A stretch of DNA of 63,860 nucleotides, filler included, from Atractiella rhizophila (lineage: Eukaryota), in NCBI GenBank assembly GCA_021432655.1. It is 4 parts of 4 records of this genome, joined end to end, with 100 filler letters (N's around TTAATTAATTAA, not from the genome) between each part and the next. Parts side by side here need not be neighbours in the genome. Positions count along the whole stretch, not along the records: positions 1 to 25,399 come from MU271362.1; 3 more parts are not named here. One strand, 5' to 3'. The notes beneath the pieces are model-generated. The model was not told the origin of the DNA and searched no databases. It saw only the letters and a list, made by a program, of their open reading frames with translations. A program made the translations under genes and the position numbers. Of the stretch, positions 6,119 through 37,749 are shown one piece after another (within the stretch, counting starts at the first letter, position 1; each line of letters opens with the position of its first letter).

Positions 6119-7162
6119 CTAATGCACCCTTGCCTCCTGCAGCATCAACTCGACGTTCCAAAGAATTCCATTTTCTCCTTCTATATTGATGTCGACCCGT
6201 CGTGAGTCCACGTTGTCATCATCTAAGCAATTGGATGACGAAACCAGCTCCCCCATCTTCGTCTTCCTCTCATCTATCAAACGCAGGCATGAATCGATGA
6301 GCACAGCACGCAGAGGGAATAGGAACGGACTGAGATTCCACTTGAGCCCTTTTGTTGTGAGGACCGTTTCCCCCTGCACGGGTATGAGTCCGATGGTTGG
6401 ATTCGGGGCAAAAGAATTTGTTTCTTCCCTCGAAGGGAACATGAAAGTATGCTTTCCCTATAGTACGCTTCCTGTTAAATACTCGAGCAAGCGGAGGAGG
6501 AGGATGGACAGACTCTGCGCATAAAACAGGCCAGATTTGGCGGATCAACGACCCAGATCTCTCTATCGTCCGCGTGTTCCATCCAGGCAAGAAAGGAGAT
6601 GGTGCTCAAAGTCTGGTCCAGTCTCCCGCTTAGTCCTCCAAAAATGACGAGCGCGTATTTATCTGTTGCATTTTCGCTCTTCTCCTGGGACAGGAGAGCC
6701 TTCCACGCTTTTCCCAAGTCGGTAGAGTCTTGGTCTGGATCTCGTACCACCGGAACGGAGATGGAGTGAAAGTATTGTTCCGAGACTGGTAGGAGGGAAT
6801 CGAGGTCACCTATTACTAGGTTAGGCCGAGGCGAACTGTCTATGAGATCAGAAAGGAAAGGTAGAGGAGGAACCACACACTTAGGAGAAGTCCCAAAAGC
6901 GTCAATCAACCGATTGCCGCCACCGTCAACGCAGTACACCAAGCTATCAGGCAAATAAAGCTGTGAGTACTAAACGCGGAGAACTGTTGATGAAGACGAA
7001 CCTGGAGGTGTCCAATAGATGAACGAGCAGCGGTTTGGAGGAGATTGAGATTGGGGTGTTGAGGATGAATAAGGCGAATTTTGGTGGTCTAGGGACGAAC
7101 ACAGGCTGGGAAGACTCTGTGGGAAGGAGAAACGAAGGGTTCCACTGGCGTGAGCGAGACAT
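6119..7162 (-). CDS. THI80: Thiamine pyrophosphokinase, multi-exon
   Basis: Motifs FALFILNTPI, CVDGGGNRL, VIGDLDS, DQDSTDLGKA, FGGLSGRLDQT, TTKGLKWNL, GELVSSSN. Confidence 0.93.
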
Positions 7163-7544
7163 CGACTATACCAGCGATGACAAACTTCATCAGTAAAATG
7201 GCACATTTCCTCCATCGAAGTCCCGGAGGGGCAAGGAGGTCTCGCACCTCTAGGAGTTCACCTCGGGATCTGTGAACCTCCCGGTGGCATGGACACTTCT
7301 TGTCCTCCTCTGCCTCCCTGCCTCCGCACTCCTCCTGGAGTTTAATACTTTTTCCAGGCGGTTATCACCAGATGAAGCATACTCGTCCCATAATTGCACT
7401 GTTCACTTCTATCCTCTGCTGAAAGCACTGCTACCAAGCATGATAAATATAAACATGAAATTTAATCACAAAGAATCTATATACAGCTTGGTCCTCTAGG
7501 TCTGCATCTGAAGGTTGAAGTTGTAAGAAAGAGACGAACCCTGT

Positions 7545-8122
7545 TACTCTTCCCAATCGCTCTTGATCGTGTAGTTGGCATCCAAATCGTCCTCATCGTC
7601 CTCAGGCTGATGCAGTTGCCCTTTCCTCACCGCAAAGTCGTACAGATCCTTTTGGATTCTTTCGGAACTACCTAGTTCCGTAGATTTTTCTTCAATGTCG
7701 TACACTTCTTCTTCCAAGAGCTAGACAGAGCAGGAAGCCATCCAAGATGCAATCCTTATGCAAGCCAAACAAGCTTTTCCATCTGGACAAAGAATAAAGA
7801 CTCCATCCTTGGTCTCAGGAGGCAAAAAGGACCAGAAAATTCGCAAACATTCACGAAAGATCTCTTTGCAGTGGAGAATAAAAAGGTCAGTATCATACTC
7901 TTGTTTATCTGCTGCCCATGTAGTAAATACTCCTGTAAATGAACACATAGGAAGATTATACACACTGTAAGGAATGGGAATCAAACTGCAGAATACATTT
8001 ACCCCCAATTTTGAGCTTTGATGCAAGTAGTTGGAGTGTCTAAGGAGGGAGATCACCAATGGCCAAAATTCAGCATTCCTTTTCATAGAAGGGACGATTG
8101 TTTTATCTGAAGATCCTTGCAT
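7545..8122 (-). pseudogene. Decayed ORF 3' end, unknown family
   Basis: The ORF at 7721-8122 continues in frame past a TAG into an acidic tail (LLEEEVYDIEEK...EDDEDDLDANYTIKSDWEE*). Confidence 0.35.
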
Positions 8123-8578
8123 AGTAATTTAAGTTGCGCCATTTGGAAGCTTTTTCTAGGATCAAGCGTCGGACGGAGGTGCTTGACCAAAATGCGAGCA
8201 ATTTGCTTACCTACTACTCCCATGCCCAGTTTTCTGAAAATGCCTCAGAATAAACATAGCCTCTTAATTAGTTGAACTCTCAATAGGTTGCATAAGTTGT
8301 ATCCTGTTCATAGGCCAGATTTCCAAATAGAAAGGTAACAATGTCAAAGATGTTGCAAAAGTAGAAAGTGGCATTCCTTTTTCAAGTTGGAGGGATCCAT
8401 GAGGCATAGGGTAAATGATCAAGGGAGATTGTTACTTTATGCCATTGTACTCGGCGTATCAAAGACTGTTCAAGGTTATTAAATATTTGATGATGATTTC
8501 AAAAAGGTGCAGGGACATTTCTGTAGAGATGTCTAGCAAATAAATCAAGCGTCGACCGGCCTCTGAGCTCAGATTCAA

Positions 8579-9304
8579 TGTAATGGTTAAGCCATATACA
8601 TGATAGGAGATACCGGAACCTTCTGGAACCTCTTAGAACAGTCTAGAACATTACTCTAGAATATGGTAGAACAGTCTAGAACATTCTCTGAATAACCCTA
8701 TCTGCCTGTTAGGGCTGACGCTATGTGCGGTCGCCGACGGGCGATGCGTCTGTAGTGAAGATAAATCTAAGAGCATGATTATGACATGAAGACTAACCTG
8801 TAGTGGAGATAAACCTAAGAGAATACTCTAAGGTCACCTCCACTACTCTCCAATCTATATTTACAAGTGGAATAACACTGCCACAGAGTGTAGAGGAGAG
8901 CAGATGAAACATGTAAGAGAACTAAAAGGGGAAGTGACAGTGGGATTATGCGGAGTTAATAAGAGGAGGATAGGCACAATTGGGCTAAGTGGCGATGTAG
9001 GTGCAAATGGGCGACGGGAGACGCAGTGGCGACGGGCGCCGATTCGCGTAAGATGCAAACCTGACACCTACTTCTTCAGCACATTCCAGAGACTGGATCA
9101 ACATCTCTACAACCAACCCTTCGAACCTCTTGTATACATTTCATCTTATAGCACTTCTTCAGAATAACATAAGGATAATCGACAACCAACGACGTCAAGT
9201 TTTGTGCCTAGGTTACAAAAGGATTGTTGTTTGAACCTAGTGTGAAAGAGATCAAAGGACATAAACTTTGTATAGTCTAGTCGTGAAACCTTCTAACTGT
9301 TACA
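8579..9304. mobile_element. Solo LTR (about 366 bp once the nested insert is removed) with 5-bp TSD TTCAA
   Basis: Starts TGTAATGGTTA and ends TAACTGTTACA (TG...CA, imperfect inverted ends). Flanked by TTCAA at 8574-8578 and 9305-9309. Internal TCTAGAACA-type short repeats at 8615-8690. Confidence 0.8.
8707..9066 (+). mobile_element. Solo LTR-like element, family B copy 1, nested in the LTR above
   Basis: TGTTAGGG...CCTGACA termini. The first ~150 bp align with the reverse complement of 20090-20242. No clean TSD. Confidence 0.7.
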
Positions 9305-12199
9305 TTCAACTTGACGATAAATTTTGTCAGCTTAGCTTCAAACTGTGAAGTAAAGGGGAAGTAAGGGTTGTTGAGTCGAAGTTTATTTTGCTCTTTCTGC
9401 ATCTCTAAGAGATGACATAGTGTCGGAAAAATAGAGCCTGCAACAAAAGGTCAGAGAAGAACCATGCATGTTGCGCGGAATAAATGTCTCACCTGCTTCA
9501 GAAAGTATTGAAGTAGACATTGCTCTGAAGATGGCTTCAGAGCCTCACCTGTGGCATTTGACTGCTGAAAAGCCCCAAACAAAAGTGTTTCATTTGTGGG
9601 AGCCAATGGGACTTTGTCAAGAGCAAGTTTGCTCCAAATGCAGTGGAGTCTGATTCAATAGGTGGGAAATTGCGAGAGGGAGTAGTTGTGGTTTGGAAGA
9701 GTGCTTGTGCATGATCTGAATCAAGATATCTCTCATTCTCTAGCTGTTACAGTTGTTGCTCTTCATGCTTGTGATTGAAGTGCAGGCTGATCAAAGCTTC
9801 TTTTGCAGCCTGGAAAGTTGCAAGGATATCTCTTGTTTGAGAGAGAAGGTATATCTGAGGTCTGAAGTGATATTAAACCAGCACTTTATTCTGAGGAGCT
9901 TAAGTATTTGACATAACACAAACTGTAAAACATAATTTCCCTCACTCATGAAGTGTATGCCATAAAAATAGCCATGGATGCACAATGACCACAAGCCAGT
10001 CAGGAAGCATCTTTGAAAGCTTGGCAGGGATAATAGTTGAAGGTGGTTACTTTTATCTCTACATTCTTTGCCTTAAAGACATCTCATTGGGTTGAGAACA
10101 ATAACCTGCTGGCTATGAAGAGGGAGCACAAAAGTTAGATCGTTATGATTGAACTAACTCAAACTGTTATGAACATAGACGGATAGATGCAGTAATATAA
10201 TGGGCAAAGAATGATAGTAGTTAATAATTGAGCAAACTTGAGAATGTGCTATATCTAATAAATGCTACTAAGGAATGTATTAAAATGGCAATAACATCTA
10301 AGATGGGAAATTTAATAATGTAGGCTTAAATGTAAGAGAAGTTAACCTCTTGATTCTCCCTCCTATAATGTGTCTTGCATGTACAACAGTATGGGCGGGC
10401 CTTATCACATGTCACCTTCCTTGCTCAACAAGTGTGACAAGAGGTGCCTTTCTTCGCCAGTCTGCTTTCTGTGGAAGAAGGAAATGGCTTAGAGATCAGG
10501 GAAAAAAAGAGGGGAGGTCACCATATTAGACTTGTGACGGCTAAGGGGTTTAGGAGGAAGGGTTGTATTGCAACTGACTCTAGCTATGGTGTAGCTCTCA
10601 GCAAGAAGGATGCTTGAGAGGAATAACAGACCTTGTTGCAACCCTTCTTTGGTCAGGATTTGGAGGCACAAATAGGATGGACTGGACCAGATGCATCAGG
10701 TTTCCAGTCCCAAATAGTCTATGTTCTGTCTGTGTTTGTCATGCAGAGTTCTAGGATTGGGTCCTTAACCTTGATTTCATTATACGGCACAACCTTGATT
10801 CGTTGGAGAATTGAACTGGGGATTTGACTAAGGTCAGGACCAATTAAGACATTCTTTGAGCATCAGTAGCGGGCATTAAAGCGACCATTGCAGCGGTGAC
10901 CTATTGAGTATTCGTTGACCACCTCATGATTGCACTTGTTGCATCTCCGTATCCATCCTGACTTACTCTGTTGCTCCATCAGCTCATTATCTCCTCAGAA
11001 GTAAAAAGAACTCACCACTCCCATTAGCTCAACAACCACTTTGACCCATTATGATGACCGTTGGATGGAAGGGGGAGAGGGGCAGAGTGAACTTTGATGA
11101 GGAGCAGAGGAGTGCTTGGTTTTCAAGCCAGTCGATGTAAGACTGTCAGGGTTCGAGCCCCTGATATAGCTTAAGTACAGACCAAGATGGATATAAACAC
11201 CCATCATTAGCTCTTTTAGTTCAGTTGGTTAGCTGTTGGTCTGCAGCCATCCTGCCACAGACGCATCTATTTGGTGAAAGAATCTCTGTCCCAAGTTTGG
11301 TGATAGGCTACTGATAAATAGAAACCAACACGATTGACAGTGGACAGAGTTAAGGATGTCTTCAGCAAGTATTGAGTTGAGGCCACTTGGAATGTCTTCA
11401 ATCTGAAAATTCATTACTTTGAACATGGAATAAGCATATAAAACACACTGTCGGATGAACTCAGGGTTCGCTGAGTTGATCATGATTTTCTTCATCTGAG
11501 CAGAGAGAATGTTGTCCTTGGAGAAGCTCAGGGGATGACACTCATGGAAGGAATCTGTATTTGCTGTGAATTTCTCCTCAGGTGACCTACTCATGCATCA
11601 GAACAGAAGGCATCAGCTACCAAAGAACATACAAGAAAAATGTTGCTTTCAGATGAGTTGCATCAATCGATGTGCTTTGTTGCCAGATAAGAGAAAGCAT
11701 GTAGGGCAGCAGTTCAAATGCTGAATCGGAGGAGGGCATAGGTTAATTATAGAGGAGACTGCCCTCTTATAGGTGGAGGAAACGAAGCGCCCACTCATCG
11801 TCTCCTACTCTGATACCTTTTGGAGCAGGTATGTGATAGGCAACCACTCTTTCTTATATTCTCCTTGTACTCCTTTATGAGCACATTTATTTAATCTATT
11901 TACTTTTCACTCTCATGCCATCAGTGCTCGCTGCTTAGACCTTGTTGAAGCTATGATCCTAATCAGATGGAACAGTGGGTAAGAGCAATGAATATTGTGA
12001 TCTTGCTGGACATTGCTTCTCTCCAACAATTGCTCTGGTCAATGGCGTCCACAGCGGACATTGTAAGCGACTTTTTCTTCAGAATAGAGAACTGGATCAG
12101 GCATTGATAGAGCGATAGAGTCTACCTAGCATTTCCTTTGAGAGCTATATCCACATTGAGAGACCGTACAATCCCATCGACCAGAAGGTTTTCTTCTGT

Positions 12200-13828
12200 T
12201 GTTTCAGGGTACAGGCTTGATCGATGTGATATCGATGTGATATGTGACACAGCCTTGAAGTTCTATGAGAAGAAAGATCCGTCGGACGTGTTCATAAATC
12301 AAGGGTCTGTACTTAAGATACCTGGTGTGAAAGTTGGGCAGGACCAGGTGGTAATCAGTAAGGGCTGGACCACACACCATCATGATGGGGACACCAATAG
12401 CATCCAGCCAGGCCTTGTACCTCAGTTCCACCCACTTCTTGATCTTCACCCCAGGATCGATAAGAGAGAGGATGTCAGTTGAGTCAAAGAAGAAAGTAGA
12501 CTTATCAACTACCCTCCATATCATCTGCAGGTGCCCAGATTGAAGAATATTGAACACTTTCGAGCTTTGGTAAAACATGAGAGAGCAGCCGCAGACAGAG
12601 ACAATGGCGCGGCATGTCAGAGAGCTTGATAAAGCTATGAACTCGATGTCTGGCAATAATGTGTGAGATTGTTCATAGAAACAAAGAACTGGAAACCTAG
12701 AACTAGATCGAACTTAAAATAGGTTTCTCAATGTCTTGATACAGCATAATAGCCTGATAGCTTTGAGCGGAGTTTTTTACTAAGCCCCCATCATTTCAGC
12801 TACCCTCCTATTATTATTTGTAAATAACTAGGTAAATTACATCACTGTCATCTACATCAGGCTTTTTCACCGAACCCTGCGATGCACCATATATTGATGA
12901 ATGCACCAAACCACTCAGCAATCTTCTCACCTTTGCTGGGTCCAAAGCATTGTCGCGGAGATCCCAGCAGAAATGGAGAAACTTTGTGAATGGAGCCGGA
13001 TCCACTTCCTACAATCTCACCCCAAAAGATCATCTGTCCCAACCAATCAAAAAGGGTAATGTCCTTGAGGACATGGAATTGAGAGATAAGCCTGTCCTTC
13101 TCATAGTGAAATTGGGTGGCACAGCGAATTATTTCCTCTAAAACAGAAGGGCACAAGGTGGAGCTGTTCGATTCGTCTTCTGGCAAGAGGTCAAAGTATC
13201 TCTTTACATCCAAGTAATGCTTGCACATGTTTGGGCACACTTTATCTCTGACAGCATTCAAAAGCACTACATCTATATTGTTCTACTCGCCGGAAAAGTG
13301 TCTTTCTTGGGAGAGAGGAATACTGAAGGAATGTTGTCAGCTGGGAAGGATGGTGGTTGGGGGAGAAAATGGCTGTCGACAAAAGTTATCGACGATTCAA
13401 CGCAGGTGAATATTGTCCGCTGTAGGTGTCCAAATGGGGTAAATTCCCCCACTGGCAGAGTTGAGGGCACTGAGGGCACCCCACCAAGCAATAGTGATGT
13501 AAAGCCCCTCTGCATAGAAGACGAGTACATCTAGGTGTTCTGCATCTGGAGAGGCGACCTCGTAATGAAGAGGAGTATAGACCCACAAGGTCCACTCTTA
13601 AGTTCCACCTGTAAAGACGATGTATCTGATCGCATGTGAACTGGCTCCCTTGGTCACTGCTGAGTCCTGCACAAAGCGACCATGGGCAGAGGATCAAATT
13701 CCATATCCAGCCTAGTGTCAGGAAACAGTGGAGAGTGGTTCAAAGGCACTGCTCCAGAATGCAGCATCCATCTAGTCGATAAATGCCTGTTCATGAAGGA
13801 ATGCATGTAGGTGTACAGAGACGTAGCG
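12200..13828 (-). pseudogene. Long decayed reading frame of unknown family
   Basis: One frame runs from ~13800 through the ORFs 13397-13588 and 12857-13267, broken only by TAG/TGA/TAA codons explainable as C-to-T changes of CAG/CGA/CAA. A further fragment lies at 12204-12656. Confidence 0.5.
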
Positions 13829-13896
13829 TTGTGAGGTGACTTGGTATTTTTCCAGTTCTGACATCTTCATTTAAAAGTATGCTTCGTGATAGAACT
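13829..13896 (+). repeat. 68-bp perfect direct repeat, copy 1
   Basis: TTGTGAGGTGACTTGG...GTGATAGAACT, identical to 15522-15589. Confidence 0.95.
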
Positions 13897-13971
13897 ACAT
13901 GAAACGAGAGCTTACAATGATACACCGAAGGATAGAAAAACTAGAAAAACTCAATGTTGAAAACGGTGCAT

Positions 13972-15420
13972 CTATGACACAACAGAAATGATATGGATGG
14001 GTTCACCCGAATTCGCTTGCTCTTTCTCTTCCACGCTGAAACCTTCCTCCTCCTCTGTATCTCCATCGTCTGTCTCACTCCAGTGACTCTGCAAATTATA
14101 CACATCACTCTGTTGGGCATTCAAACCCAGATTGGGCAGAACAAGGTTTGGCTTTCCCATTCTCCTAGCAAAGATGGTGGTTGAAGGAGAGTCTCTCTGG
14201 TCTTCTGTCCCATTGGAACTATTTACGGCGGTTACTTCCGAAGAAGCTACAGAGCTCTTGCGGTAACTATCCCGAGCTAAAGAAGAGGAAGCAGCAATCG
14301 ATCCTTGGTTCGTTTCGCTCTCACTTTCGATCCCGAACGATGTCCCAAGAACTTTCGTATATCCATCCCAAGAGATCGCCCTCTCCTCCTTGTCCTCGTC
14401 GGGGACAACCAAGTTCCCGAAAGCAACTGAGTTGACGGAGTCAGACTCAGGAGTTTGGAAGTTTAAGACGTTTTCGATCGCCTTTTCCCCTGCTGATTTC
14501 TCTTCCTCCCCGTCCTGAGCTCCCGCCGCGTAAGACCCCACGTAGATACCATGTCGAGGGCTCTTCTGTGGACTGGAAAACAAGATTGCTTCGTCGCCTT
14601 CCTCTTCACTTCCTTCTCTGCTCATCCTTTGCCTATACGTTTCTGCGAGAGCCAAATACGAGTCTCTCTTGCTCCCCGTCGAGCTGCTGACCTTTTGAGG
14701 ATAATAACTCGATGCAAGCCCTCTTCTCATTCGTGGGGTCATGGGAACAGAAGGTGGGGTCTCGTATGGCCTATTATCTTTGGGCGACTTCCAGTAGGCT
14801 GAATTCTCGGGAGTTCGCGGTGGAGAAGAGAGAGGAGAGTCTCTCGGAGGTGACGGAGGGACGTTGACTGGGACGACATTCACGGTAGGATTCCGTCTGG
14901 CTGCCAATCCCAGAGGAGGAGGACAGTTCGCTTTACGTTCTCGAAGTTTCAGGACGAAGCTGGTGTACTGCTTCCCATCCTCAGCCAATCTCTTCTCCTT
15001 CACAACTTCAAATTCACAATCCTCCTCCATCTCATCCTCTACTCTGAACTCAATCCCCTCCGGTCCCAAAGATTGAGTTGACCTCTCCCCGATGGGGAAT
15101 AGGACTGGAGTGAATGAGAGAGGCGATGGGGATGGGAGCGGAGATGGGAGCGTCACGGATGACGGAGATGCCCCGTCCTGACTGGAAAAGTGGCTGCCGT
15201 TAGCCATAAAGGGAGAGGCCAATGCTTTCGCCAGAGGGATAGTGCTGAGGTTGGCGCGAGCTGATGAGGAGCGTTGGCGTGAGGAGTGACGCGTCGGAGG
15301 CATCGTCAATTTGTTGCCGCGCGGTGGATTAGGAAAGGTATGCGCATTGGGGTGAGATACGCTGGAGATCTTGGAAGCCTGAGCTGGTTTCGTCTGGTCA
15401 GCACGTCCGCTTATATGCAA
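13972..15420 (-). CDS. Intronless Ser/Pro/Glu-rich hypothetical protein (likely start at MPPTRHSS, ~15303)
   Basis: 482-codon uninterrupted ORF with normal CpG content and no recognisable domain. Confidence 0.7.
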   Translation of the reverse strand: MHISGRADQTKPAQASKISSVSHPNAHTFPNPPRGNKLTMPPTRHSSRQRSSSARANLSTIPLAKALASPFMANGSHFSSQDGASPSSVTLPSPLPSPSPLSFTPVLFPIGERSTQSLGPEGIEFRVEDEMEEDCEFEVVKEKRLAEDGKQYTSFVLKLRERKANCPPPLGLAARRNPTVNVVPVNVPPSPPRDSPLSSPPRTPENSAYWKSPKDNRPYETPPSVPMTPRMRRGLASSYYPQKVSSSTGSKRDSYLALAETYRQRMSREGSEEEGDEAILFSSPQKSPRHGIYVGSYAAGAQDGEEEKSAGEKAIENVLNFQTPESDSVNSVAFGNLVVPDEDKEERAISWDGYTKVLGTSFGIESESETNQGSIAASSSLARDSYRKSSVASSEVTAVNSSNGTEDQRDSPSTTIFARRMGKPNLVLPNLGLNAQQSDVYNLQSHWSETDDGDTEEEEGFSVEEKEQANSGEPIHIISVVS

Positions 15421-15521
15421 TTGAGGGAAAAGATTGACGGACTCCTTCTATTGAGTAACAGATCGTCAGAGGAACTTGGTCTCTTTAAAAGCGGAGGTCG
15501 TCTCGTAGACTTCGGGGGTTA

Positions 15522-15589
15522 TTGTGAGGTGACTTGGTATTTTTCCAGTTCTGACATCTTCATTTAAAAGTATGCTTCGTGATAGAACT
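15522..15589 (+). repeat. 68-bp perfect direct repeat, copy 2
   Basis: Identical to 13829-13896. Confidence 0.95.
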
Positions 15590-15607
15590 CCTCGACAAGC
15601 TCATCAG

Positions 15608-16892
15608 CATTGGGGGTATACAACCCAATAAGTATCTATTGGATATAACCCCCTATACCAATGTATAGTAAATATAATTATTGAATTCTTTAAAAAACCC
15701 CTTTTTTAACATGAAATTTGATACACATCCTTATGAGAAAAGAACAAAAACAATATGAAAAAGAACAAAAAATATGAGAAAAGAAGTTACATAGAAATTT
15801 TAGTTATATAATTTTTATATATTTATAATAAATATATAAAACAAAATTTAATAAACAAAATAAAAAGAAAAACAACTCAAAAATTATAAAAATGAAAAGG
15901 CAACAAATTATATTTTTCTCAAAGATGTAAAATCTACATCTATAAATAAAGGATACTAAATAGTTTATAATACATAAATATGATAATAAAACAAATACAT
16001 ATACATATACATATACCAAAATTTCCTATTGCTACATAAAAGGAATTCCTAGATTTTTTCTAGGACACATCCTATGGGGAATATAAGTGAATTAAAATAT
16101 ATTAATGTAAGGTTTAGTGAGCGGTGATTCGTATGAGTAAGGGGAAAGTGGCAGAGAGTGTGGGTGTGTGCAGAGCGCCGATGGGTAGATACATGATCTA
16201 ATGGAATAGGAAGGTAGGTCATGTGACTTAGGTTGGTGCATTTCGATAATGTGTAGGGGCAAGCCTGACAGGTATTTTAGATAAATATTTATATACTTGA
16301 TGTACGTTATATTCATAATTTGTTTTTATTTATTCTAATTGTATAAAAAATAATATATTAAATTTAAGATATATATTAGGTATTGATATTGTTCAAAAGA
16401 TGGCTAAAAATAATGATATAACATATTCTTAAAAATCAATATAATATTAATGATGACATTATTTTTAAATTGGATTATATATTCAATTTTTTAATAGATG
16501 AACCATATAATTGATATATAAAAAATGATGATTATAAATTAAAGTTAGATATCAATCCTGAATATATTACTTTATTTAAAGATATAAATATTTATAGTCC
16601 TAATATAATGGGAATAGTGGTGAAGCCTAATTATGAAAATATGAAAATAAAAACTGAGTTTTTGGAGGATATCTAAATAATGATAAATAACGTTTTATTA
16701 TTTCATTTTTATTATCTAAATTTAATTGCAGAAATATTTATTTATTAATTTATTACCGTCTTTAGTTTCTAAATAAGTTAATATATTATTATTACTAATT
16801 ACAAATATAAATATTAATAATCATTCAGTATCTAATTTTTATAATTTAATTAATACTATTAATTATTTTAATAAAATTAAATTAACATCTTT
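15608..16892. other. Extremely AT-rich insert, candidate NUMT or mitochondrial plasmid/virus-derived DNA
   Basis: For example, only 5 G+C in the 60 bases 15781-15840. Contains an 84-codon frame (16422-16676) broken only by one TGA. Confidence 0.55.
16106..16270 (+). mobile_element. LTR family B partial copy inside the AT-rich insert
   Basis: Ends ...GCAAGCCTGACA and aligns with the reverse complement of 19764-19930. Confidence 0.75.
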
Positions 16893-17399
16893 ACCAGTTC
16901 GAAATCTGTCAGAAAAGGTTGCGAAGAGAGGTAAAATGTTGACAGCAGACTGTCAGACAGTAGAGAAGAAGTTGTATGGGAACAAAGGTTGAAGAAAACT
17001 GTTGAACCTATATGTGCAGCCTCATTTACCCTTCTGTTCCCCTTTGCCTAGTTCAAGTAATTGACTTGCCGCTTACATTCTTTTCCCTTCTGTTCGTTGT
17101 CTTCAGTGCTTTAGAAGAACTGGAATCCTGCCCAGAAGGTGATCTAGACCATAACTTTTCAGTCAAAGCTGCTCAGTATACTGGCCTACGACTTTTCAAT
17201 AGCCAAGTTGAAACGTAGAAGCCCACTGACAATGAGCTGAGAGTGCCTGACAAGCCCTTTGTTAAGAGTACACACTCAAGAGAGTGAAGAATTACAGGGT
17301 CAGTTTGACCATAGAAGAGCTTGTGAAATATGCACAGGCTGCCACAGACCCTTCTGAGCTGGCATAAAGACTAAGGAAGAATAACACAGTTGAGGAATG

Positions 17400-18530
17400 C
17401 TGCAGACACCTGTATATGGTCACAGGACAACAAACCAGTGGCTGTTTTCTTTAAAAAGGCCTGGCAATCCCATTTGGTGCTCATTTTCCCTTAAGGACAA
17501 GGCAAAAGACTGCTCGTTTCTACCATGCTTATGGGAAATACATTGCTCTTCAAAAGTTGAACATGGGTGGAGGGTTGATGTACAAGAACCTGGCTAAGGA
17601 TAAGAGACATAAGAAGCCTAGACGAATACGGTACCATAAGGCAATGATGCGGCAAAGACAGCTGGTTGGTTTGCAGTACATTGCTCTCTGGCATGAAAAA
17701 ATCAAAAGGAATCAGGATCCTATTCCTTGTGCCAGCATATTTCAAGGATGGAGAGAGCAAGTTCTTTTAACAAGCCTTTCCTTGAATATATTGAATTAAT
17801 TAGTGCTATCCTGGATATGCTATAAAGCGTTTCGCCGTTCAACAACTTGCTTCACATCTCCAAATTTTAGCTGCAACATATATTGCCATCTCTCCTCACG
17901 CTTTCCTCAGAACCAACAAACTCTTCAAATTTATCCAACACGCCAAGTTATACAAGGCTCCGCTTTGGGATTCAACTTCAAGCATACTTTTCTCCACTGG
18001 ACTAGTTCTTATCTTCAACAATCTGTCTTCTCGTCACGTCGACTGGAACAATACATTCGACTCACTTGATCCATCAGCACCACAGGCAGCTACGAAGGGG
18101 GCGACACTATGGATGATATTGGAGGGGTGGACTTTCGAATTCAACAGTGACCAGGCAACGTCCTCTTTCTTCTCGCCGGCGCAGCGGCTCACTGGATCAC
18201 GGACGTCCTTGTCGGCGAGAGCGTCTGTATCAATACGTTTACCCACCGAAAAGTACAGGATTATATCTCAAGGCAAATGGTGGATCGGACAAAGACAGGC
18301 GCCGAATTTGAAGAGTGAGTCCTTTCTTCCGTCTATTTGCTTGTGTTGATGAATAGATTAGTTTCTATTCATTTGAAGCTTTCGAAAACCAGGCTGCAGC
18401 GAACGAGAGGTTCAAAGCAAAAGAATTCGAGCTACAGGAGGCAAAGGCGGTATTTGTAGCGAAACGAGCCATCAGAATTAGCAACGACTGGAACTCTGCA
18501 GCCAAGAAGAATCTAAAGAGAAAAAGATGA
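17400..18530 (+). pseudogene. TET/JBP-like 2OG-Fe(II) dioxygenase pseudogene
   Basis: Reconstruction: GLQYIALWHEK...PIPCASIF / intron / ...FSTGLVLIFNNLSSRHVDWNNTFDSLDP [frameshift ~18070] ISTTGSYEGGD...QQ*PGNVLFLLAGAAAHWITDVLVGESVCINTFTH / intron / ...KKNLKRKR*. HxD at 18035, second His at 18190, and Rx5-aromatic spacing with Ser in place of Arg. Confidence 0.7.
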
Positions 18531-18808
18531 GATGGATTCCATATTCCAAGTTATATCTTTATGAATAAAATATTATCATTTAGCATTGCTGCTCCGTATC
18601 TTTGCATTTTCCTGTGCCTGAGCTGCAACGGATCTATACAAAAAAATAAAAGGTCATATCGAGGAAGAAACTATCGAAGCGAAGAAGAATCTAAAGAGAA
18701 AAGATGAGATGGATTCCATATTCCAAGTTATAGCTTATGAATGAATTATTATTATTTAGCATTGCTCTGGGATCAGCTCCGTATCTTCGCATTTTCCTGG
18801 CCCTGAGC
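18504..18808 (+). repeat. Diverged tandem duplication of a ~170-bp unit; copy 2 is split by the TIR element and resumes at 20505-20554
   Basis: 18504-18623 matches 18682-18808, and 18617-18670 matches 20505-20554. Confidence 0.85.
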
Positions 18809-20504
18809 CCTTGTCAAAAGGCCTTTCCTGCATTTTCCACATTTTCCAGCAAATGTTGACAAATACCAACCAATTTCCCACATTTTCAGTTTCAACCAGA
18901 AAATAAATCGAGCCACAAGCAGCCGCAATGAGCAGAGAAGTAAAATATAGGAAATTCCTGGGCTTGCTTTGCAAAACTGCAATGCTCTTTTTTTCTTCTC
19001 CAAGTTGAAACGTTGAAAGGTTGACTGGCGGTCGGGAATCTGCTGGTGAAAAATTTTCCTTTACCTTTTCGTGTGCAGGATTCTTCAGTTGCGCTCATTT
19101 TCCATGGTGCCATGCGAGGTCTATGAAGACTTGCTGTAAGAGATGTCTTACTCTTTCCCCTTTCCCCGCATCATGTATTACCATGCGACAACAATGATGT
19201 CCTGTTCTTCTAGGAAACTTGCTGCAGGGATTTGTGTGGGCAGCTTGGTGGTGTTTGAGCGTAGTAACAGGAGGAGTGACAGCCTGAATGAGGCGAAGTT
19301 CAGGTATCAAAAGTTATCGGACTCTTCAGTAAGTGCTTGCTTCCCACCTTGGAATAAAGGGTGACGAACCTGAAGTTTTCCACTCAGCTTTAGTGAGCTA
19401 ACCCTCCCCATCACCTTCATCCTTGCATAATGCAGGCAAACATGGCTCAAGGAAGGTGGTGAGTTGCCTGCTTCCTGCTTCATTTCAAGCTGCATAAGAC
19501 TGAATGTTTCACTTTAATAGTGACATGCACCGGCACTCTCGAGTCGAATAACAGGAAATGGATGCACAATACCATGGAAACGGATGGATGTGGGATATCC
19601 AGATTGTAAGAGTTGGTTCAATCCAAAAAGGAGGTGTGTCTTGTTTCTATCCTTTGCTTACTAGTATGCAAGTTGTTTGCACCGCGACTCTGACTGCACC
19701 ATGACAGCCACAGGAGCAACAAAGCGTTGTGACAGATGTGGGACAAAGTTGTTTGGAGGTCAGTGTCAGGCTTGCCACTACGCATTACCGAAATGCACCA
19801 TCCGAGGTCACGTGACCCACCTTACCGTGTCATGAGATCACGTGCCTACCCATCGCCGCTCTGCACATGTCTGCGCTGTTCGCCGCTTTCCCATTTCTCA
19901 CACGAATCGCCGCTCAGCAACCTTATACATTTCACCGGTCTGCACCGTCTCCATTTTCGCCTTATTGTCCTTTCTCACTAGTACTACCCAGTATATCTTA
20001 TTTCCGAGTATTCCCTTTATTACTTTCCTGATCTAGCTATCTTACACGTTTCAAGCAACGTATGTTACAGTTTATGGCAGTGCCTTTACTTATGTATATA
20101 TACATCGAGATGTAGTGGTGATGACCTCAGAGTATTTACCTCCACTACAGGTTAGTCTTCTCATGCCATACTATTCTCTTAGGTTTACCTCCACTACAGA
20201 TGCATTGCCCATCGGCGACCGCACATAGTGTTTGCCCTAACAGTTGGTCAAAGAAGTGGTGGGGGAGGAGGTGAAGAGGGGAGCGAGAGTCGATAATACA
20301 GGGAATTGTGGCTAATTCATGGATTATGCAACTTATTCAATTACAAAAATAAGCTCTCATGTGTTTTTCGCTTGAAGGAAATTCTGGAATAATCAGCAAC
20401 CCAGGCCCTACTTTTCGGTCTTTCCTGCATATTCCAGCACAACGGAAAAAGGTCAGAAAATCGAAGGAAATGTCGACAAATCACGGAAAGGACTTTTGAC
20501 AGGG
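18809..20504. mobile_element. Non-autonomous or decayed TIR DNA transposon, 1696 bp, 7-bp TSD CCTGAGC
   Basis: Left end CCTTGTCAAAAGGCCTTTCC versus reverse complement of the right end CCCTGTCAAAAGTCCTTTCC (18/20). CCTGAGC at 18802-18808 and 20505-20511; empty site at 18617-18640. Confidence 0.8.
19764..20242 (-). mobile_element. Solo LTR family B copy, nested in the TIR element
   Basis: TGTCAGG...CCCTAACA termini, homologous to 8707-9066 and 16106-16270. Flanks GTCAG and GTTGG are consistent with a decayed GTCGG TSD. Confidence 0.75.
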
Positions 20505-20551
20505 CCTGAGCTGCAATGGATCTACGCAAAAGAAAGTTCATATCGAGGAAG

Positions 20552-20560
20552 AAAAAAAAA
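20552..20560 (-). terminator. RNA polymerase III oligo-T terminator of the tRNA
   Basis: T9 run immediately 3' of the tRNA on the minus strand. Confidence 0.85.
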
Positions 20561-20642
20561 CGAACCGTGTGCGGGTCGAACGCACGACATCTTGATTCCT
20601 CGTAGTCCGAAGTCAAGCATGCTACCACTGCATCAACGGTCC
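20561..20642 (-). tRNA. tRNA-Arg(TCG) with a ~10-nt intron
   Basis: Minus strand: acceptor stem GGACCGT/ACGGTTC, D-arm ATGC-AGTGGTA-GCAT, anticodon arm CTTGA-CT-TCG-G[intron]A-TCAAG, T-arm GTGCG-TTCGACC-CGCAC. Confidence 0.92.
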
Positions 20643-20811
20643 CGCGGATGCTCATGAGTGTCTTTACCTGCTGAAGTAGTGATGGGAGTTTGACGTTTGC
20701 ATTGAGAAAACCTGGCTGCAAGTTGGATCGACTACTATCTCCAAAAATAGCACAAGCGCATTTACGCTTCCGCAACGGCGTCCTTTTGCGCAAAGCAAAG
20801 CTTCATCCACC

Positions 20812-22957
20812 ATGGCAGAAACTTGTCCCTCTGAAAACACGCTCGAGAAAGACCAAACCGATTTTTGGGATGAGAGTGGGATTCATTGGGATGCTCACAG
20901 AATTGGATGGGCCATCGCGGGTGGTTGTGCTCTCTTGAGCACCATCATTTCTAGCGTAAATATTTGGGGTCACTGCAGGAATTATAGGAAGCCGTGAGTA
21001 GCTGATTTGAGTTACTGGAAAATTGCATATTGGGAGTCGAGAGTCCGGCGGAGCTCAGCCTCAGGGACATGGTGCGATACGGCTCGGCTCGTTACATCCC
21101 CCGCTTGCCTGCACGCAACAACGAGCTCTGGATATTGATGGCACATTGCAGCTTTCGCCGCTAAGTGATTGAGCTGTGTCTCTTTACTACTAGCACCGGC
21201 TGGCAATTCCCTGCCGACAGCTGCCGCTACATAACAGCACTAGAGAGCTACAGTAGCTATAGTTTATGGTACCATGACCGTAAACTACTTCCTTTTGCAT
21301 GCCTACTGCTTGGAAAGTTGTGCCGCTGTTATTCCGTCAAGTTAATTAACTTTACCTTCTTGGTAGGATGGAACAACGGCAGGTAATTCGAATACTCCTC
21401 ATGCCACCAGTATATGCAATCATATCGTTCCTGGGCTATCGGTTTTTCAGGGAATATACGTGAGTTCTTCCACTGGGTCAAGCCAACTAAGCTAACCTCT
21501 TGTACAGCTATTTTGAGGTCGTGCGTGACACATACGAGGGTTCGTGCCTCCACTTTTGCTCTGTTCCCAGAATTCCGATGCCAAATTCGTAGCCTTCGCG
21601 ATCGCCGCCTTCCTCGTCCTCATCCTCCTCTACGTCGGACAGTCTCCGATCGAACAACGAGAAGCAATGATGAAGAAAGAGAAACAGTCACTTCCCCTCC
21701 CCTTCTGCTGTTGGCGATATCGTCCTTCCAAGCCTTACTTCCTTTGGGCCATCAAGTGGAGCGTTCTACAATTCGTTTTTCTTAAACCGCTGGAATCGCT
21801 GGCTAGCGTAATCACGGAGGCGTTCAATGTTTATTGTGTTGAGAGCATGAGTTATCATTTCGCGCATGTGGTATGCTCCTTTACTTTGGTGAAAGACATT
21901 GGCTGACCATTAATTGGCAGTATATCTTGTCCATTGATTTCGTCATTGTCTCGGTTGCTCTTTACGGGCTAGTAGGTCGCGTTCCACACTTCTAACGCGT
22001 TCGACTTAAAATGCCTTTTAGTTGGTGCTATACGGGCTTGCAAAGGAAGACTTGGAAGGCCGCCGTCCCCTCGCCAAGTTCTTGACCATCAAGCTTGTGC
22101 GTCCCTGTTTTCAACCCCCAAGCTACTATGTCATACGATGTTGAGCGCAGTCAATCTTCCTTACTTTCTATCAAGGATTCGTCTTTACTGTTCTCGCGCA
22201 TTACAACGTCATCACCGCGACCGAATACTGGACTGTCAGTAACATCTCCAATGGTTTAAACGCGCTCTGTACCACGATCGAGGTGCGTTCCTTCTTTCCG
22301 TCTTACTCTCATGACGATCACTCACTCCGCCTGCACTCCAGATGGTCCTCTTTTCTCTGCTGCAGTTTTGGGCTTTCAACTACCATGAATACAAACTCGT
22401 CATTCAGGATGAGCGGCCACCGACATCATTCTGGAAAAGCTTCCTGCACTCGCAAAAGCATGCTCTCCGTTTTTATCCTTTGGCAGAAAGAACTGACGCT
22501 TTTCCAAATTGTCAGTTATACGGATTTCATAATCGACTTTTACTACGCCTCGCATTTTTTCGTTGACAAAGTCAGAGGAAAGGCTTACACATCATCGAAG
22601 ACAGAGCGAAGAGCCGTTGAGAGTGCGTAACCCTTCTGTCCTTCTTCAAACGGTCTGACTTGGCCTTTTAACGAAACAGCTGCGGAAAAGTTCGATCTTG
22701 CCGATGTTTTCGCCCTTGATGCCTCCAAAGGAGGCGTGCGTTCCCACCGGCGGCCTCAGCAAGATTACATGTATGGTGTAGCTGGTACAGGGACGTCTGA
22801 GCAACTGCCCATGACCGCTAGTGCTAGCAAGATGGAGCGTGGGACGGCAGAATGGAGTTTGGGACCCGGAAGAAGTCAGGACATGTTGGACGAGATGGGC
22901 TTAGATGAGCGAGCAGTCGGAAAAGAGGAGCGAAGTTATCAACGCTTCGATAGCTAA
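20812..22957 (+). CDS. TMEM184/OST-alpha (DUF300, Hfl1-like) membrane protein, multi-exon
   Basis: HWDAHRIGWAIAGGCALL...HCRNYRKP / EQRQVIRILLMPPVYAI / FEVVRDTYE / LPLPFCCWRYRPSKPYF..IKWSVLQF / RPLAKFLTIKL / FLTFYQGF. Confidence 0.9.
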
Positions 22958-23344
22958 CTCTCTGTCACCTTGCGGATAGATGGACACTACTGTGTATAGA
23001 TTGAGGAGATCTAATTTGTCTAATTAGCTGAATAGCACTCATGTTACTGCCTCCCACTCCCATGCTCCCGCACAAACTGTACTAATCCAACCGTACACGA
23101 TTCTTCCACCAGCCATTTTCTTTACTATTGATGATGAATGCCCTTTTTGGCTGAAGACATTTGCTTAACAGCTGCGGTTGTGTCATCTTCCCGATCGATC
23201 GATCAAACTAACACCACGAATCAACGAACTCGAATCACTACCCAGCGTACTGCCTGTACTGCCTGGCGTCGCGATATTTAAATAGTCGGCTATCAGCACA
23301 AAAACCTCTGCGCCGTCCCAGAAACACTCTACTCATCGCCCCAA

Positions 23345-25399
23345 ATGCCACCGAAAACGCGTTCTTCTGCTTCGTCTGCTACCCGCAAAAAGCACGCCAA
23401 GAAGGCTGCTCACAAAGCGGAAAAGGCGTCGTCTGCTGCCACTCCGATTGATGATATCTCTGAGGCTGATGAAGGGGGAGAGGGAGAGGGAGAAGACACG
23501 TTGGGTGACGGAATGGGGGCTGCAGGGGGAGATGGACCGCAAGCAGGAGCACATGGACCAAAAGGAGGGCAAGGTGAAGTGCTGGCAAAGAAAAAGAAGC
23601 CCTCCAAAAAGGAGCTCAAGAAGTCTGCCGCTCCTCCCCCTCCGAAAAAGTATGTTCCACCGACTCGCCCAAAAGGTTACGATCCTGTCGATTCACTCGC
23701 GCCTAATTTGCAGAGGGAAGATCCGGAGCTTTACATTGTACTTAAGAAGTTGGGGAAGAGAGATGAGAGGACAGTGGACAGGGGGATGGAGGAGTTTAAG
23801 ACTTGGGTTGAGGGCACACAAGAAGGGGGAGGGAGTGTCAGTGAGGAGGTTCTGGGAGTTTGGGTAAGTCCTTTTCTAGAAGGCGATGGAGAGCAGCATT
23901 TTGGTTGCATTAACCTTGCTTGATTGATTGTGTGATCCATTCTGACACCATATCAGGCTTATCAATTCCCACGACTTGTACTGCATGCGTCACGGCGGAT
24001 TCGCTCGCTCACAACCGCGGTCCAAGCCTCTCTCACATCTTCCGCCATCTCTTCTTCCTTTTTAGTATCGCCTGTCAACCTTACCAATCCAACTTATATC
24101 GGGTCGTGGTGCCTCAATGCGTTTGATTCCGACAAGACCATTCGAAGCAGAGGGCAAGAAAGCTGGAGCAGCATGCTCAGAGTCCTCAACGACGAATTTT
24201 ATGGTCTAGACGAATATGTGCCAACCCTGATTGAGTTCATGGAAACCCTACTCTCTGCTCATCCATCTGATGAATCCGACGAGTCAAGCGAGGAGGAGCG
24301 TGTTGCCATGATAAACAAGGCTGTCTCTGCGGTCGACGCTTTAAGTTGGCTCATGAGTGAGCCTATTGTGCAGTTCAGCGCATTAATTGATGAGAAATAT
24401 AGGGCTGGATGTTGCTGCCGACGATCAAGAAGAAGCTTTTGTCGAATCATTTAGTGCCTTACTCGCTAGTAACGATTTTTGGGATATCCTCAATGGCCGC
24501 CAATGGAGCAGAAGAGGGAAGCGGTCCAAATTTCTGCCTAGTCGTGCACCTCCTGTTCGAACCGCATTGTGGGAGCTATTTTCCAAGGGCTTGATATCTA
24601 ATCCCCGAGCAAAACGTGAGCGTTATCTAGTTCGCAACCAAAAATTGACTGAAACCCAGGATTTGTGCAGAATAATGTCCATAGCCTGTCGCTCCGAGTA
24701 CTTCGCTTTGCCTGGGAAGAGTGGGAACCTCCCGTACAATCAGCGATTTGGCCAGGACTACTCGCCTTTCTGAAAGGTACGCCACATTGCTCCATCTTGA
24801 TTTTGCCTCAGGCCTTTCTTCTGTAGATCATCCGGAGGCTTGGACCTATGTCGAAGGAGAAGATAAGGACGAGACCGCCAAAGCTTTCGCCCCCGAAACA
24901 GAGTCCCAACCTCCAGCAACTCTCTCTCGCTTCCTAGAATGGCTGAAAGTCGGCTGCAACGGAAACCCTGTTGGAAACTACCCGGTCGTCATCATCATAC
25001 TGTCCACCTTACCTGATGGAGTGAGCATGCGGATCTAGTTAGTGATGGGGCTGATCAAAATGCCAGATACTTCCTATTAGGCAAGCCACTATCGATGCTT
25101 TTCTCGCCGTCGTCTCCTCTGCGTGGAATACTGGGAGTATTGACGCCTCTGGCTCTCGGGGCCTTGCTGCCTTTGTTTCCTCGTTTCTCGAGTGCTTCGT
25201 ATACCTTCTCTCGAAACAGAAGGCTCGTCAACCAGAAGACGACGCGGTTCTGTCAGCTCTCTCTCAACGTTGGTTCGCGGCTATATGGGATGACATGCTT
25301 GGAGCGAAGGCTATCACGACGGGGTGGTCTGGCGTGACCGATGAATTTGTCAAATGTTTGGTCCGCTTAGCAAAGCTATCATCTAGTAAGTTGTCTGTA
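23345..25399 (+). CDS. RKR1: E3 ubiquitin ligase listerin (Ltn1/Rkr1), N-terminal part, truncated at contig end
   Basis: MPPKTRSSASSATRKKHAKK start, then LKKLGKRDERTVDRGMEEF (Ltn1 N-terminal motif) and HEAT-like exons. Confidence 0.75.
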
Positions 25400-32193: not shown

Positions 32194-34664
<2,471 letters not shown>

Positions 34665-35045
34665 ATCGCAAATCAACGTGAAGCATCGATTGAAGGCAAA
34701 AACCTTGGTAGAATTACAATAAGTGTTTCAGTAATTGAAGTGTCTACATGTTCAGCACGAAATCCATTTCTCAAGATGGCTCGACGATCTTTACATTCTC
34801 GAATTGCTTCGGAGTATATGTTTTCTAACGGTCCCATCAATCGATGACCGTCACAACTAAGGGAAAGAGGACGCGCCTGGACGAAGGCGTGGAGCTGCGC
34901 AATCTCGTCTTTTAAACGCTCATTGACTGCAACAGCCAGGACTGAGCAGAGTATTTGCGGAAACGAAGAACCCACCTAATCGATGGCGGGCCAGAGTGGG
35001 TTTCCCTTCGAAAGAAGGCGAGACCACGATTACTTCATAGCTCTT

Positions 35046-37135
35046 GTATGACAGTTGAGTGGCGATTATTGTCAAGAGAAGCAGTAATCACCGTTCCACA
35101 ACCAGCTACGTGCATGCAAGAGATCTTAGTGCGCACAGGTCATAATGCAGAGAAGCTCACCAGAAATATCATACGCTTTCTATGAAGCAGAAAGTTCAAT
35201 CGCCATCTTGGGAATATGATTGGACGCACAACGAACGTTGCATCCGTGAACTAATTGCCAAATGAGAACCAGAACCAATTGCGTAAGCGGCAGAAGAGCC
35301 CACCCTTTCTCGCAAGGCTGCTTCAAGAGAATCTACGGACACTGACATCCCGATCACAGCCTAAATTCCTGGAGTACCTGTCAGCCCAAACGAGGGCCAG
35401 AGTTGAATTGAAAGCAGATATTTTAACGGAATAAACCTACTTGAACCTGGTTGTACACGCAGAACACACAAGGCTGGAGGTTGTGTGGCTAGTCAGCGTT
35501 CTTTCCACATGCAAAGCTACTCCGTTAAAACCCGGTGCCTATTCAGTCGACTGCGTGGTGTTCGGTATTACTTAGAAAGGCAAGCAGCAACGCAGCAGGA
35601 CTGGTAGCTCACAGAGAAACAACGAACTGCATTGAATTTCAGAATTTCAAGCGAAATTTTAAGAGGCTAGCTGCTGGTTTGTGGAAAGGCGAACGGGGGA
35701 GAGCTTGTGAGTCTTCAAGTCACTGTGACTGAATTTCGGCTGATTTCTGGGTGCAACTGGACAGAGAGGTGCACTTCTGTCTGACGAAAGACTGACTGTC
35801 ACTGAAGTATCAGCTGTCCAGCTCGCGCCCAGATACAGCGGTCTGTCGTTTCAAGCCTGTTCAGGACTCTGCTAGTCTGTTCGTGTTGCTGGAAAGAAGA
35901 ATCCCGCCTTGAAGCTTGCGAAGACGAGTGCCTCAAACACAGTTCACTTCCTCAACGTTTCTGCCGAATTGCCCCTCCTCCTTTTCCAGCAAGACCCCCG
36001 TTCACAATTTCCATTGCTCCCAGCATAACGCCAACAACCATACACCACCACTGCCATCATCAACCTGTTGAGGAGGTGCTCTTGTCGAGGAGTATGACAG
36101 TTGAGTGGCGATTATTGTCAAGAGAAGCAGTAATCACCGTTCCACAACCAGCTACGTGCATGCAAGAGATCTTAGTGCGCACAGGTCATAATGCAGGGAA
36201 GCTCACCAGAAATATCATACGCTTTCTATGAAGCAGAAAGTTCAATCGCCATCTTGGGAATATGATTGGACGCACAACGAACGTTGCATCCGTGAACTAA
36301 TTGCCAAATGAGAACCAGAACCAATTGCGTAAGCGGCAGAAGAGCCCACCCTTTCTCGCAAGGCTGCTTCAAGAGAATCTACGGACACTGACATCCCCGA
36401 TCACAGCCTAAATTCCTGGAGTACTGTCAGCCCAAAGGAGGACCAAAGTTGAATTGAAAGCAGATATTTTAACGGAATAAACCTACTTGAACCTGGTTGC
36501 ACACGCAGAACACACAAGGCTGGGGGTTTTGTGGCTAGTCAGCCTTCTTTCCACAAGCAAAGCTACTCCGTTAAAACCCGGTGCCCAATTCAGTCGACTG
36601 CGTGGTGTTCGGTATTACTTAGAAAGGCAAGCAGCAACGCAGCAGGGCTGGTAGCTCACAGAGAAACAACGAACTGCATTGAATTTCAGAATTTCAAGCA
36701 AAATTTCAAGAGGCTAGCTTCTGGTTTGTGGAAAGGCGAGCGGGGGGGAAGCTTGTGAGTCTTCAAGTGTGACTGAATTTTCGGCTGATTTCTGGGTGCA
36801 ACTGGACAGAGAGGTGCACTTCTGTCTGACGAAAGACTGACTGTCACTGAAGTATCAGCTGTCCAGCTCGCGCTCAGATACAGCGGTCTGTCGTTTCAAG
36901 CCTGTTCAGGACTCTGCTAGTCTGTTCCTGTGGCTGGAAAGAAGAATCCCGCCTTGAAGCTTGCGAAGACGAGTGCATCAAACACAGTTCACTTCCTCAA
37001 CGTTTCTGCCGAATAGCCCCTCCTCCTTTTCCAGCAAGACCCCCGTTCACAATTTCCATTGCTCCCAGCATAACGCCAACAACCATACACCACCACTGCC
37101 ATCATCAACCTGTTGAGGAGGTGCTCTTGTCGAGG
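35046..37135 (+). repeat. Near-identical tandem duplication of ~1045 bp (35046-36090 and 36092-37135)
   Basis: Direct comparison shows scattered substitutions and small indels; a single A separates the copies. Confidence 0.95.
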
Positions 37136-37749
37136 CACCAGATTGCCTCATTTGTAGGTTTTCACTCTTCATTGCATGTGACAGATGAGCTGAGAAACTT
37201 TTGACTTTCGCCCAGCCCTCAACCAAATAGAATTCGACGCCGTAAAGACGAGACTAGCTTTGACGGTCGACATCCAACGCTACAGACCTCTTTCAAATCT
37301 CCTACTCGCGTCACACCTCAAACTCTCTTACCTCACGGCCAACTTTCAATCTTCGCCCCATCTTCGTCCACCCCTCAGGAACTCGACAAGCTCCGGAATA
37401 AGCGGAGAAAACTGCTGGCTATCCCGATCGCTTTTCAATCGACTTGGCTCAAACTTTGTTAACTTTGAGTAAAGATCAGATCAGGACAAGACTAGGTTAA
37501 GAAATTTGTCAGTCGACTCTGCCTCCCCTTCACGTACAATCTCTTTTTGCCGGATCTGGGGAATATGAAGGAGACGATGTTGTCCTGGCTGCTTCAGAAC
37601 CTCAGCTGTTCCAGTAGTCATTCATAGCTGACGTGCTTGATAACTCAGTTTTCCGTCTCTCCCGTCATCCCAGACCATCCGAATCCTTTAAACACGCTCA
37701 CAGAAGTCGCTCGATCTCCCAAAGACTTGACTCATACTTCCAGAGGACG

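Follow-up and report, generated by a model that had tools for sequence, protein, structure and literature searches.

Introduction

TET/JBP enzymes travel as cargo of fungal DNA transposons, with 11 lineages distinguished in the parts of Kojima 2025 (PMC12730594) cited here, where oxidation of 5-methylcytosine (5mC) by transposon TETs is described as not yet validated. In two mushrooms 47 of 74 and 32 of 47 TET copies are predicted to be active and copies with predicted inactivity are common, according to the relevant passages of a second paper (PMC8889193). For the rusts, the cited sections of Kojima 2025 (PMC12730594) report PU-type TET/JBP genes in Dileera, hAT7, PHISTA, IS3EU, EnSpm, ESTA and Helitron1 transposons. 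In the same paper, Asp337 of CcTET is required for 5mC and Gly331 is tied to 6mA activity (section 3.4), and JBP and CMD1 are given a thymine substrate or other products.

Here we describe a TET/JBP pseudogene of Atractiella rhizophila (assembly GCA_021432655.1) that lies in the window, the whole stretch of 63,860 nucleotides, filler included, that was analysed. At a probability of roughly 0.78, we consider it a dead CcTET-like (AG-type-like) Fe(II)/2-oxoglutarate DNA dioxygenase that was once transposon cargo and countered methylation silencing. TET relics are already known in fungal genomes and, as a pseudogene, the window copy matters little. What it adds is a CcTET-like enzyme in a Pucciniomycotina host absent from the cited parts of Kojima 2025 (PMC12730594), where neither text nor supplement mentions this host, and a pair of copies that preserves, in an inverted block, the decay by CpG mutation of a TET gene once under selection. 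A literature search at the bibliographic level returned no paper dealing with this gene or with TET in either Atractiella or Mutator elements.

Structure of the gene and its disabling lesions

The gene is real but broken and occupies 17276-18530 on the plus strand in three exons (Table 1). The sequence-only reading had let it begin at 17400; its start lies near 17276, and two introns and five further lesions (the lost ATG, a TAA at 17365, two frameshifts and a splice acceptor) have to be added. A genome-wide DNA search found one further full copy, on contig C193 (G000:C193), which is 88% identical and is adjoined by fragments of a third copy. The same own-genome search found the gene nowhere outside the window locus and its C193 counterpart, the paralogs being distant. 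Since its sequence agrees with the two window flanks at 97-98% identity (7.2 and 4.7 kb), C193 most likely represents the other haplotype.

Table 1. Positions of the pseudogene parts and of neighbouring features in the window
Feature	Position	Strand	Evidence or remark
Exon 1, N-terminal region	17276..17756	+	Alignment to C193 copy; unitigs; external profile
Intron 1, predicted, 58 nt, GC donor, GC-AG	17757..17814	+	Excision gives an open 315-codon frame in the C193 copy
Exon 2, catalytic double-stranded beta-helix (DSBH) domain	17815..18314	+	Motifs, C193 alignment, profile
Intron 2, predicted, 47 nt, GT-AG	18315..18361	+	Junction shared with P0006, the model annotated for the C193 copy
Exon 3, charged tail, stop TGA 18528-18530	18362..18530	+	
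Tandem second copy of gene 3' end (18500-18623)	18678..18808	+	86% identical; also in C193
PlavakaB relic	7188..9876	-	Terminus CATCAGTAAAATGGC after TT at 7188; absent from C193
360-bp high-copy TG..CA repeat, read as solo LTR	8707..9066	+	Within the Plavaka relic; partial inverted copy 20066-20243
Block common to window and C193 (24635-39691)	10105..20650	.	Inverted relative to flanks; matched parts 79-89% identical
1.7-kb non-autonomous element	18808..20504	.	Inverted ends of the CCCTGTCAAAA type, shared with the C130 EnSpm-like element
tRNA gene (called tRNA-Arg)	20561..20642	-	Right inversion breakpoint

Six-frame translation placed the iron triad HxD...H where it had been proposed, with His at 18035, Asp at 18041 and His at 18190. 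The HVD motif (18035-18043) is preceded by N, G.YEGG and PGNVLF follow in the next frame, and the triad is interrupted by a frameshift and a stop. Exon 3 ends in a basic motif, KKNLKRKR, that is a possible nuclear signal by prediction.

Eight disabling lesions were counted in the window copy by comparison with the C193 copy, in agreement with its earlier designation as a pseudogene. The ATG is gone through a 7-nt deletion near 17276, a TAA stands at 17365-17367, exon 1 carries a +1 near 17396 and a -1 near 17458, and the acceptor of intron 1 reads GG at 17813 where the C193 copy has AG. A single base is absent after 18070, causing the -1 frameshift that had been placed at about this position, and TGA at 18148-18150 replaces a CGA that the C193 copy retains at a CpG site, the origin that had been suspected for this stop. 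The last of the eight is a serine in place of arginine at 18220. The exon 1 indels and the 7-nt deletion also occur in unitigs of one sample, for which two runs were used; these runs may themselves be the source of the assembly. Exon 2 also differs from the C193 copy by an in-frame +9 near 17945.

With the serine (AGC, 18220-18222) and Phe 18238, the last strand of the window copy reads Ser-x5-Phe, not Arg-x5-aromatic. Arginine occupies this position in the third copy (Q-R-S-C, more decayed, on C193), in the paralogs on contigs C447 and C130 and, across an alignment of 44 rows, in at least 90% of them, and is therefore ancestral; the sequence-only reading was right to see a serine at the 2-oxoglutarate-binding Arg.

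The open frame of the C193 copy keeps HxD, His and Arg. One base is missing directly 3' of the Arg codon, which shifts the frame. The third copy continues after this Arg in the CINTFTH frame, as do the paralogs and the family, so the conserved aromatic is lost in the C193 copy, which is less decayed yet probably disabled too through this missing base. Unitigs carry both versions of the gene, the C193 version over 578 nt without differences, and since this 578-nt unitig lacks the same base a slip in the deposited contig is unlikely. Unitig depth was about twice as high for the window type as for the C193 type (~2:1). The annotated C193 model, P0006, skips the HxD segment.

Family, fold and enzyme type

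Assignment to the TET/JBP family was upheld using a profile of 40 homologs, none of them from this genome. The repaired, X-joined read-through of the window copy scored 49.5 bits and the segment from 17341 scored 17.7 bits, against 5.1 bits for the best non-gene segment among 756 six-frame window segments, a control that is not fully independent because the homologs were gathered via a profile including the C193 copy. The C-terminal half of the window copy matched Pfam Tet_JBP (PF12851) with E 0.0066 and 16.1 bits (gathering score 34.9). For the C193 copy Tet_JBP was the sole significant Pfam family (E 3.6e-8), with the truncated domain at 33.2 bits against the same gathering score. A profile built from four own-genome copies, run against 1.84 billion proteins, retrieved 435 of them at E<=1e-3; among 32 relatives scanned, from 150 listed, 30 had a Tet_JBP match and 20 were above the cut-off. 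A word-index search among longer proteins returned nothing but the C193 annotation.

Models were made of C193 exon 2, whose DNA is 89% identical to that of the window gene, and of the C447 paralog, and both recovered the expected double-stranded beta-helix; the evidence on fold is that of these two models, which depend on the supplied alignments. The C193 exon 2 model (pLDDT 85) found CcTET as its best fold match (E 7.6e-6, TM 0.69), and so did the C447 model (pLDDT 93, E 1.6e-7), with NgTET1 next in both cases. Ranking solved structures by profile gave the same order, CcTET at E 1e-17 and NgTET1 of Naegleria (PDB 4LT5, 5CG8) at E 2e-11; the Naegleria enzyme shares the catalytic core and is more distant than CcTET. 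A PDB search with the C193 domain as a single sequence gave no match.

Compared by eye at the sequence level, the enzyme appears CcTET/AG-like and not of the rust PU type. It shares with CcTET the fold, the HxD...H...Rx5F layout, the Asp337-equivalent and the GER.C strand, and the AG-type rows of Table S1 look alike by eye. The motif is HxD and not HxE, which separates it from the PE type. The Atractiella locus differs from CcTET and the AG type in having Asn at the Gly331-equivalent, in the window copy and all four aligned own-genome copies, where the AG type has Gly/Ser; there is also no Kyakuja or Zisupton transposase nearby, and the copy is dead. A further difference is that Atractiella belongs to Pucciniomycotina, for which the cited parts of Kojima 2025 (PMC12730594) report the PU type only. 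PU-type rust genes share with the window gene the subphylum and a repeat-rich, CpG-eroded setting, but their sequence type is unlike it, as judged by eye. In a FastTree tree of 61 sequences, all of them search matches, the own-genome copies clustered with 0.98 support together with one outside long-branch sequence.

In the working ancestor HxD...H would have coordinated Fe and the Arg would have held 2-oxoglutarate, and the substrate oxidised would have been 5-methylcytosine in DNA. It is unlikely, though it deserves some weight, that this was instead a TET/JBP enzyme with another target (thymine, RNA bases or 6mA) and no anti-methylation factor. Identity to CcTET is just 16-25% in the fold matches, and the nearest named relatives outside the genome, among 20 looked up, are hypothetical ascomycete proteins, both of which leave room for another substrate. 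However, the two 5mC oxidases CcTET and NgTET1 come out on top by sequence and by fold, and neither the window copy (at 18068) nor any of the four aligned own-genome copies has lost the Asp337-equivalent.

Past selection and loss of CpG

Across 288 codons compared between the window and C193 copies, dN/dS was 0.34 (Fisher p<1e-4), with 0.25 for exon 1 and 0.46 for exon 2. Purifying selection therefore acted over part of the divergence of the copies, and the gene once worked.

The CpG observed/expected ratio is 0.3-0.7 across most of the island and 0.87-0.92 in the flanks. C/T differences, counted over three aligned block segments, affected 54% of CpG cytosines as compared to 8-15% of cytosines in other contexts. 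Of the CpG sites, 48 of 74 differed in the gene region and 66 of 491 in flanking sequence (p 5e-20). The loss was greater in the window copy, which kept 11 CpGs where the C193 copy kept 28 (p 0.009). The proposal that the gene was killed partly by CpG decay stands for the block, with its strong CpG loss, and for the TGA, but it does not extend to the lesions as a group: one of the eight is a CpG transition, the rest being indels, a transition at CpA, an altered splice site and the change of the Arg codon. The TCG preference reported for Pucciniomycotina was not seen in these sites (TCG 53%, CCG 76%, GCG 59%, ACG 33%), for which counts are small. A cytosine methyltransferase domain is encoded on contig C133 next to a helicase-like frame; from this neighbour and from its motifs we take it to be probably DNMT5-like. 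We propose that, after the two versions of the block had diverged, the window copy died via at least eight lesions under what would have been methylation-driven mutation.

Selection of this strength would also fit a gene serving the host, and the main rival to our reading is that the TET gene was captured (domesticated) by the host. It would then be a selected single-locus gene free of a transposase, the window copy would be a null allele, and the C193 copy would work with a changed last strand and tail. The gene does occupy a single locus in the genome, no carrier was found, the open frame of the C193 copy runs to 315 codons and includes HxD, His and Arg, and the C193 model retains a strand at residues 130-141. 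Against this, the C193 copy has lost the aromatic of the conserved frame through a base whose absence is unlikely to be a contig slip, and it lies amid CpG-depleted repeats beside a destroyed duplicate. We regard host capture as improbable.

TET paralogs and their transposon context

TET paralogs were found on four contigs of the genome (C447, C15, C130 and C5), and the window gene is about 25-35% identical to the transposon-borne ones. On C5 (90450-98461) and C130 (15320-34713, with nested insertions) the paralog lies inside an 8.0-kb element that is 95-96% identical between the two sites, has 28-bp inverted ends and is flanked by a distinct 9-bp target duplication at each site, which we presume to be the mark of a Mutator-like element. 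A third pair of ends, and ends only, was found at C144:797-9109. Carriage by a transposon is demonstrated for the C5 and C130 paralogs only. The paralog of the 8.0-kb element shares homologous N-terminal and catalytic regions with the window gene, but the ends and the other genes of the element are undetectable around the latter. The C130 paralog has its catalytic residues, and in the C5 copy there is a stop as well as a deletion.

The remaining two paralogs, at C447:35515-37694 and C15:171014-173190, share a 2.2-kb TET cassette that is 75-82% identical and has a small inversion within it. The C447 copy has retained HxD, His, Arg and Phe, and the C15 copy has His for Arg and a stop. As with P0006, the annotation on C447 omits the HxD segment. 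The C447 and C130 paralogs, with their full catalytic set, offer a direct test of 5mC oxidation by transposon TETs.

At C130:15531-22616 there is also an EnSpm-like element with CCCTGTCAAAA ends and a transposase that has 92 matches in the genome. It was rejected as carrier of the C130 paralog since the TET gene lies outside these ends and three sister copies are without TET.

Search for a carrier around the window gene

The sequence-only reading had called the window copy transposon-borne, which is not shown for this copy: no termini, target duplication or transposase enclosing it were found. The absence of a KDZ transposase nearby, also part of that reading, was borne out. PF18758 gave no match in 7001-21002, and the 20 KDZ transposase matches of the genome lie on eight other contigs, none on C183 or C193, with no homology to them in the region. 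The 28-bp ends of the 8-kb element had eight matches on five other contigs and none on C183 or C193, matches in the window were at chance level, and outside TET the window region had no homology to this element.

PlavakaB and the EnSpm-type element beside the gene appear to have inserted separately. A Plavaka transposase pseudogene (9876-7733), above the Pfam cut-off and with a 4.4-kb internal deletion, lies 7.4 kb from the TET gene. The idea that the gene was cargo of this PlavakaB element, as a TET-positive Plavaka, draws on this proximity, on the terminus match at 7188 and on the missing second terminus, which leaves the element without a set limit. PlavakaB was rejected as carrier, however: C193 diverges at the TT before the terminus and lacks the element, resembling an empty site, yet keeps the TET block. 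No second terminus was found, including beyond the TET gene, and no CATCA..TGATG enclosure with a 2-3 bp duplication. The closest complete relative, at C169:77752-84813 (7062 bp, both termini, TT duplication), has no TET. In the cited parts of Kojima 2025 (PMC12730594) TET-positive Plavaka were not found in Pucciniomycotina. We give this origin hardly any credence.

The 1.7-kb EnSpm-type element lies downstream of and outside the TET gene and is missing in C193. EnSpm-like transposase was found neither on C183 nor on C193 among the 86 of 112 candidates scored. The CACGTGCA ends in C193 were rejected as EnSpm termini, having no duplication and an end that is not repeated.

Two inverted repeats were likewise rejected as element ends and are read as LTR-type insertions. 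The one at 8706/20173 is a high-copy repeat and not a terminal repeat of the island; of 424 candidates for the 360-bp repeat 40 were scored, and about 40 near-full copies were seen among these. The other, at 16118/19764, has TG..CA ends and recurs in part on C256.

Returning to the origin as transposon cargo, we propose that the TET gene would have arrived with a cut-and-paste DNA transposon, as in the C5 and C130 paralogs, and that the enzyme may have served against methylation silencing. Deletions, the inversion and later insertions would then have erased the ends and the transposase of the carrier. A combined scenario, which we hold to be very improbable, has a CcTET-like lineage that is borne by Mutator-like elements elsewhere in the genome (a carrier outside the 11 lineages of Kojima) and was captured by the host here, with null and active versions segregating within a recombination-blocking inversion. 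If true, this would be a natural on/off polymorphism for DNA demethylation.

Other features of the region

Within the block, 10105-13800 has no Pfam match and, apart from C193 and short repeats, no other copy in the genome. A 141-codon frame at 12857-13282 on the minus strand gave a weak, sub-threshold match (0.85) to a fungal STAND Goodbye domain in an Atlas search and is possibly the relic of an NLR-type gene. At 13829-15589, two identical 68-nt direct repeats surround a Ser/Pro-rich ORF of 491 codons on the minus strand (13972-15447), which has no Pfam match and a CpG content like that of the host. This segment is missing in the C193 block and could stem from the recent capture of a gene or from a join made in assembly. 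Directly upstream of the TET gene, 15600-16900 is AT-rich (22% GC), unmatched in C193 and contains a short TG..CA repeat at about 16108-16270.

C193 in turn has a Copia-like retrotransposon relic and a 6-7 kb insertion (20500-24600 and 32800-39500 of that contig), neither of which is in the window; the insertion contains Cys-rich frames with no Pfam match. Elsewhere in the window, tandem duplications of 97-98% identity lie at 35046-37135 and 44287-45059, the latter interrupting a tuberin-type gene, and are probably two haplotypes joined during assembly.
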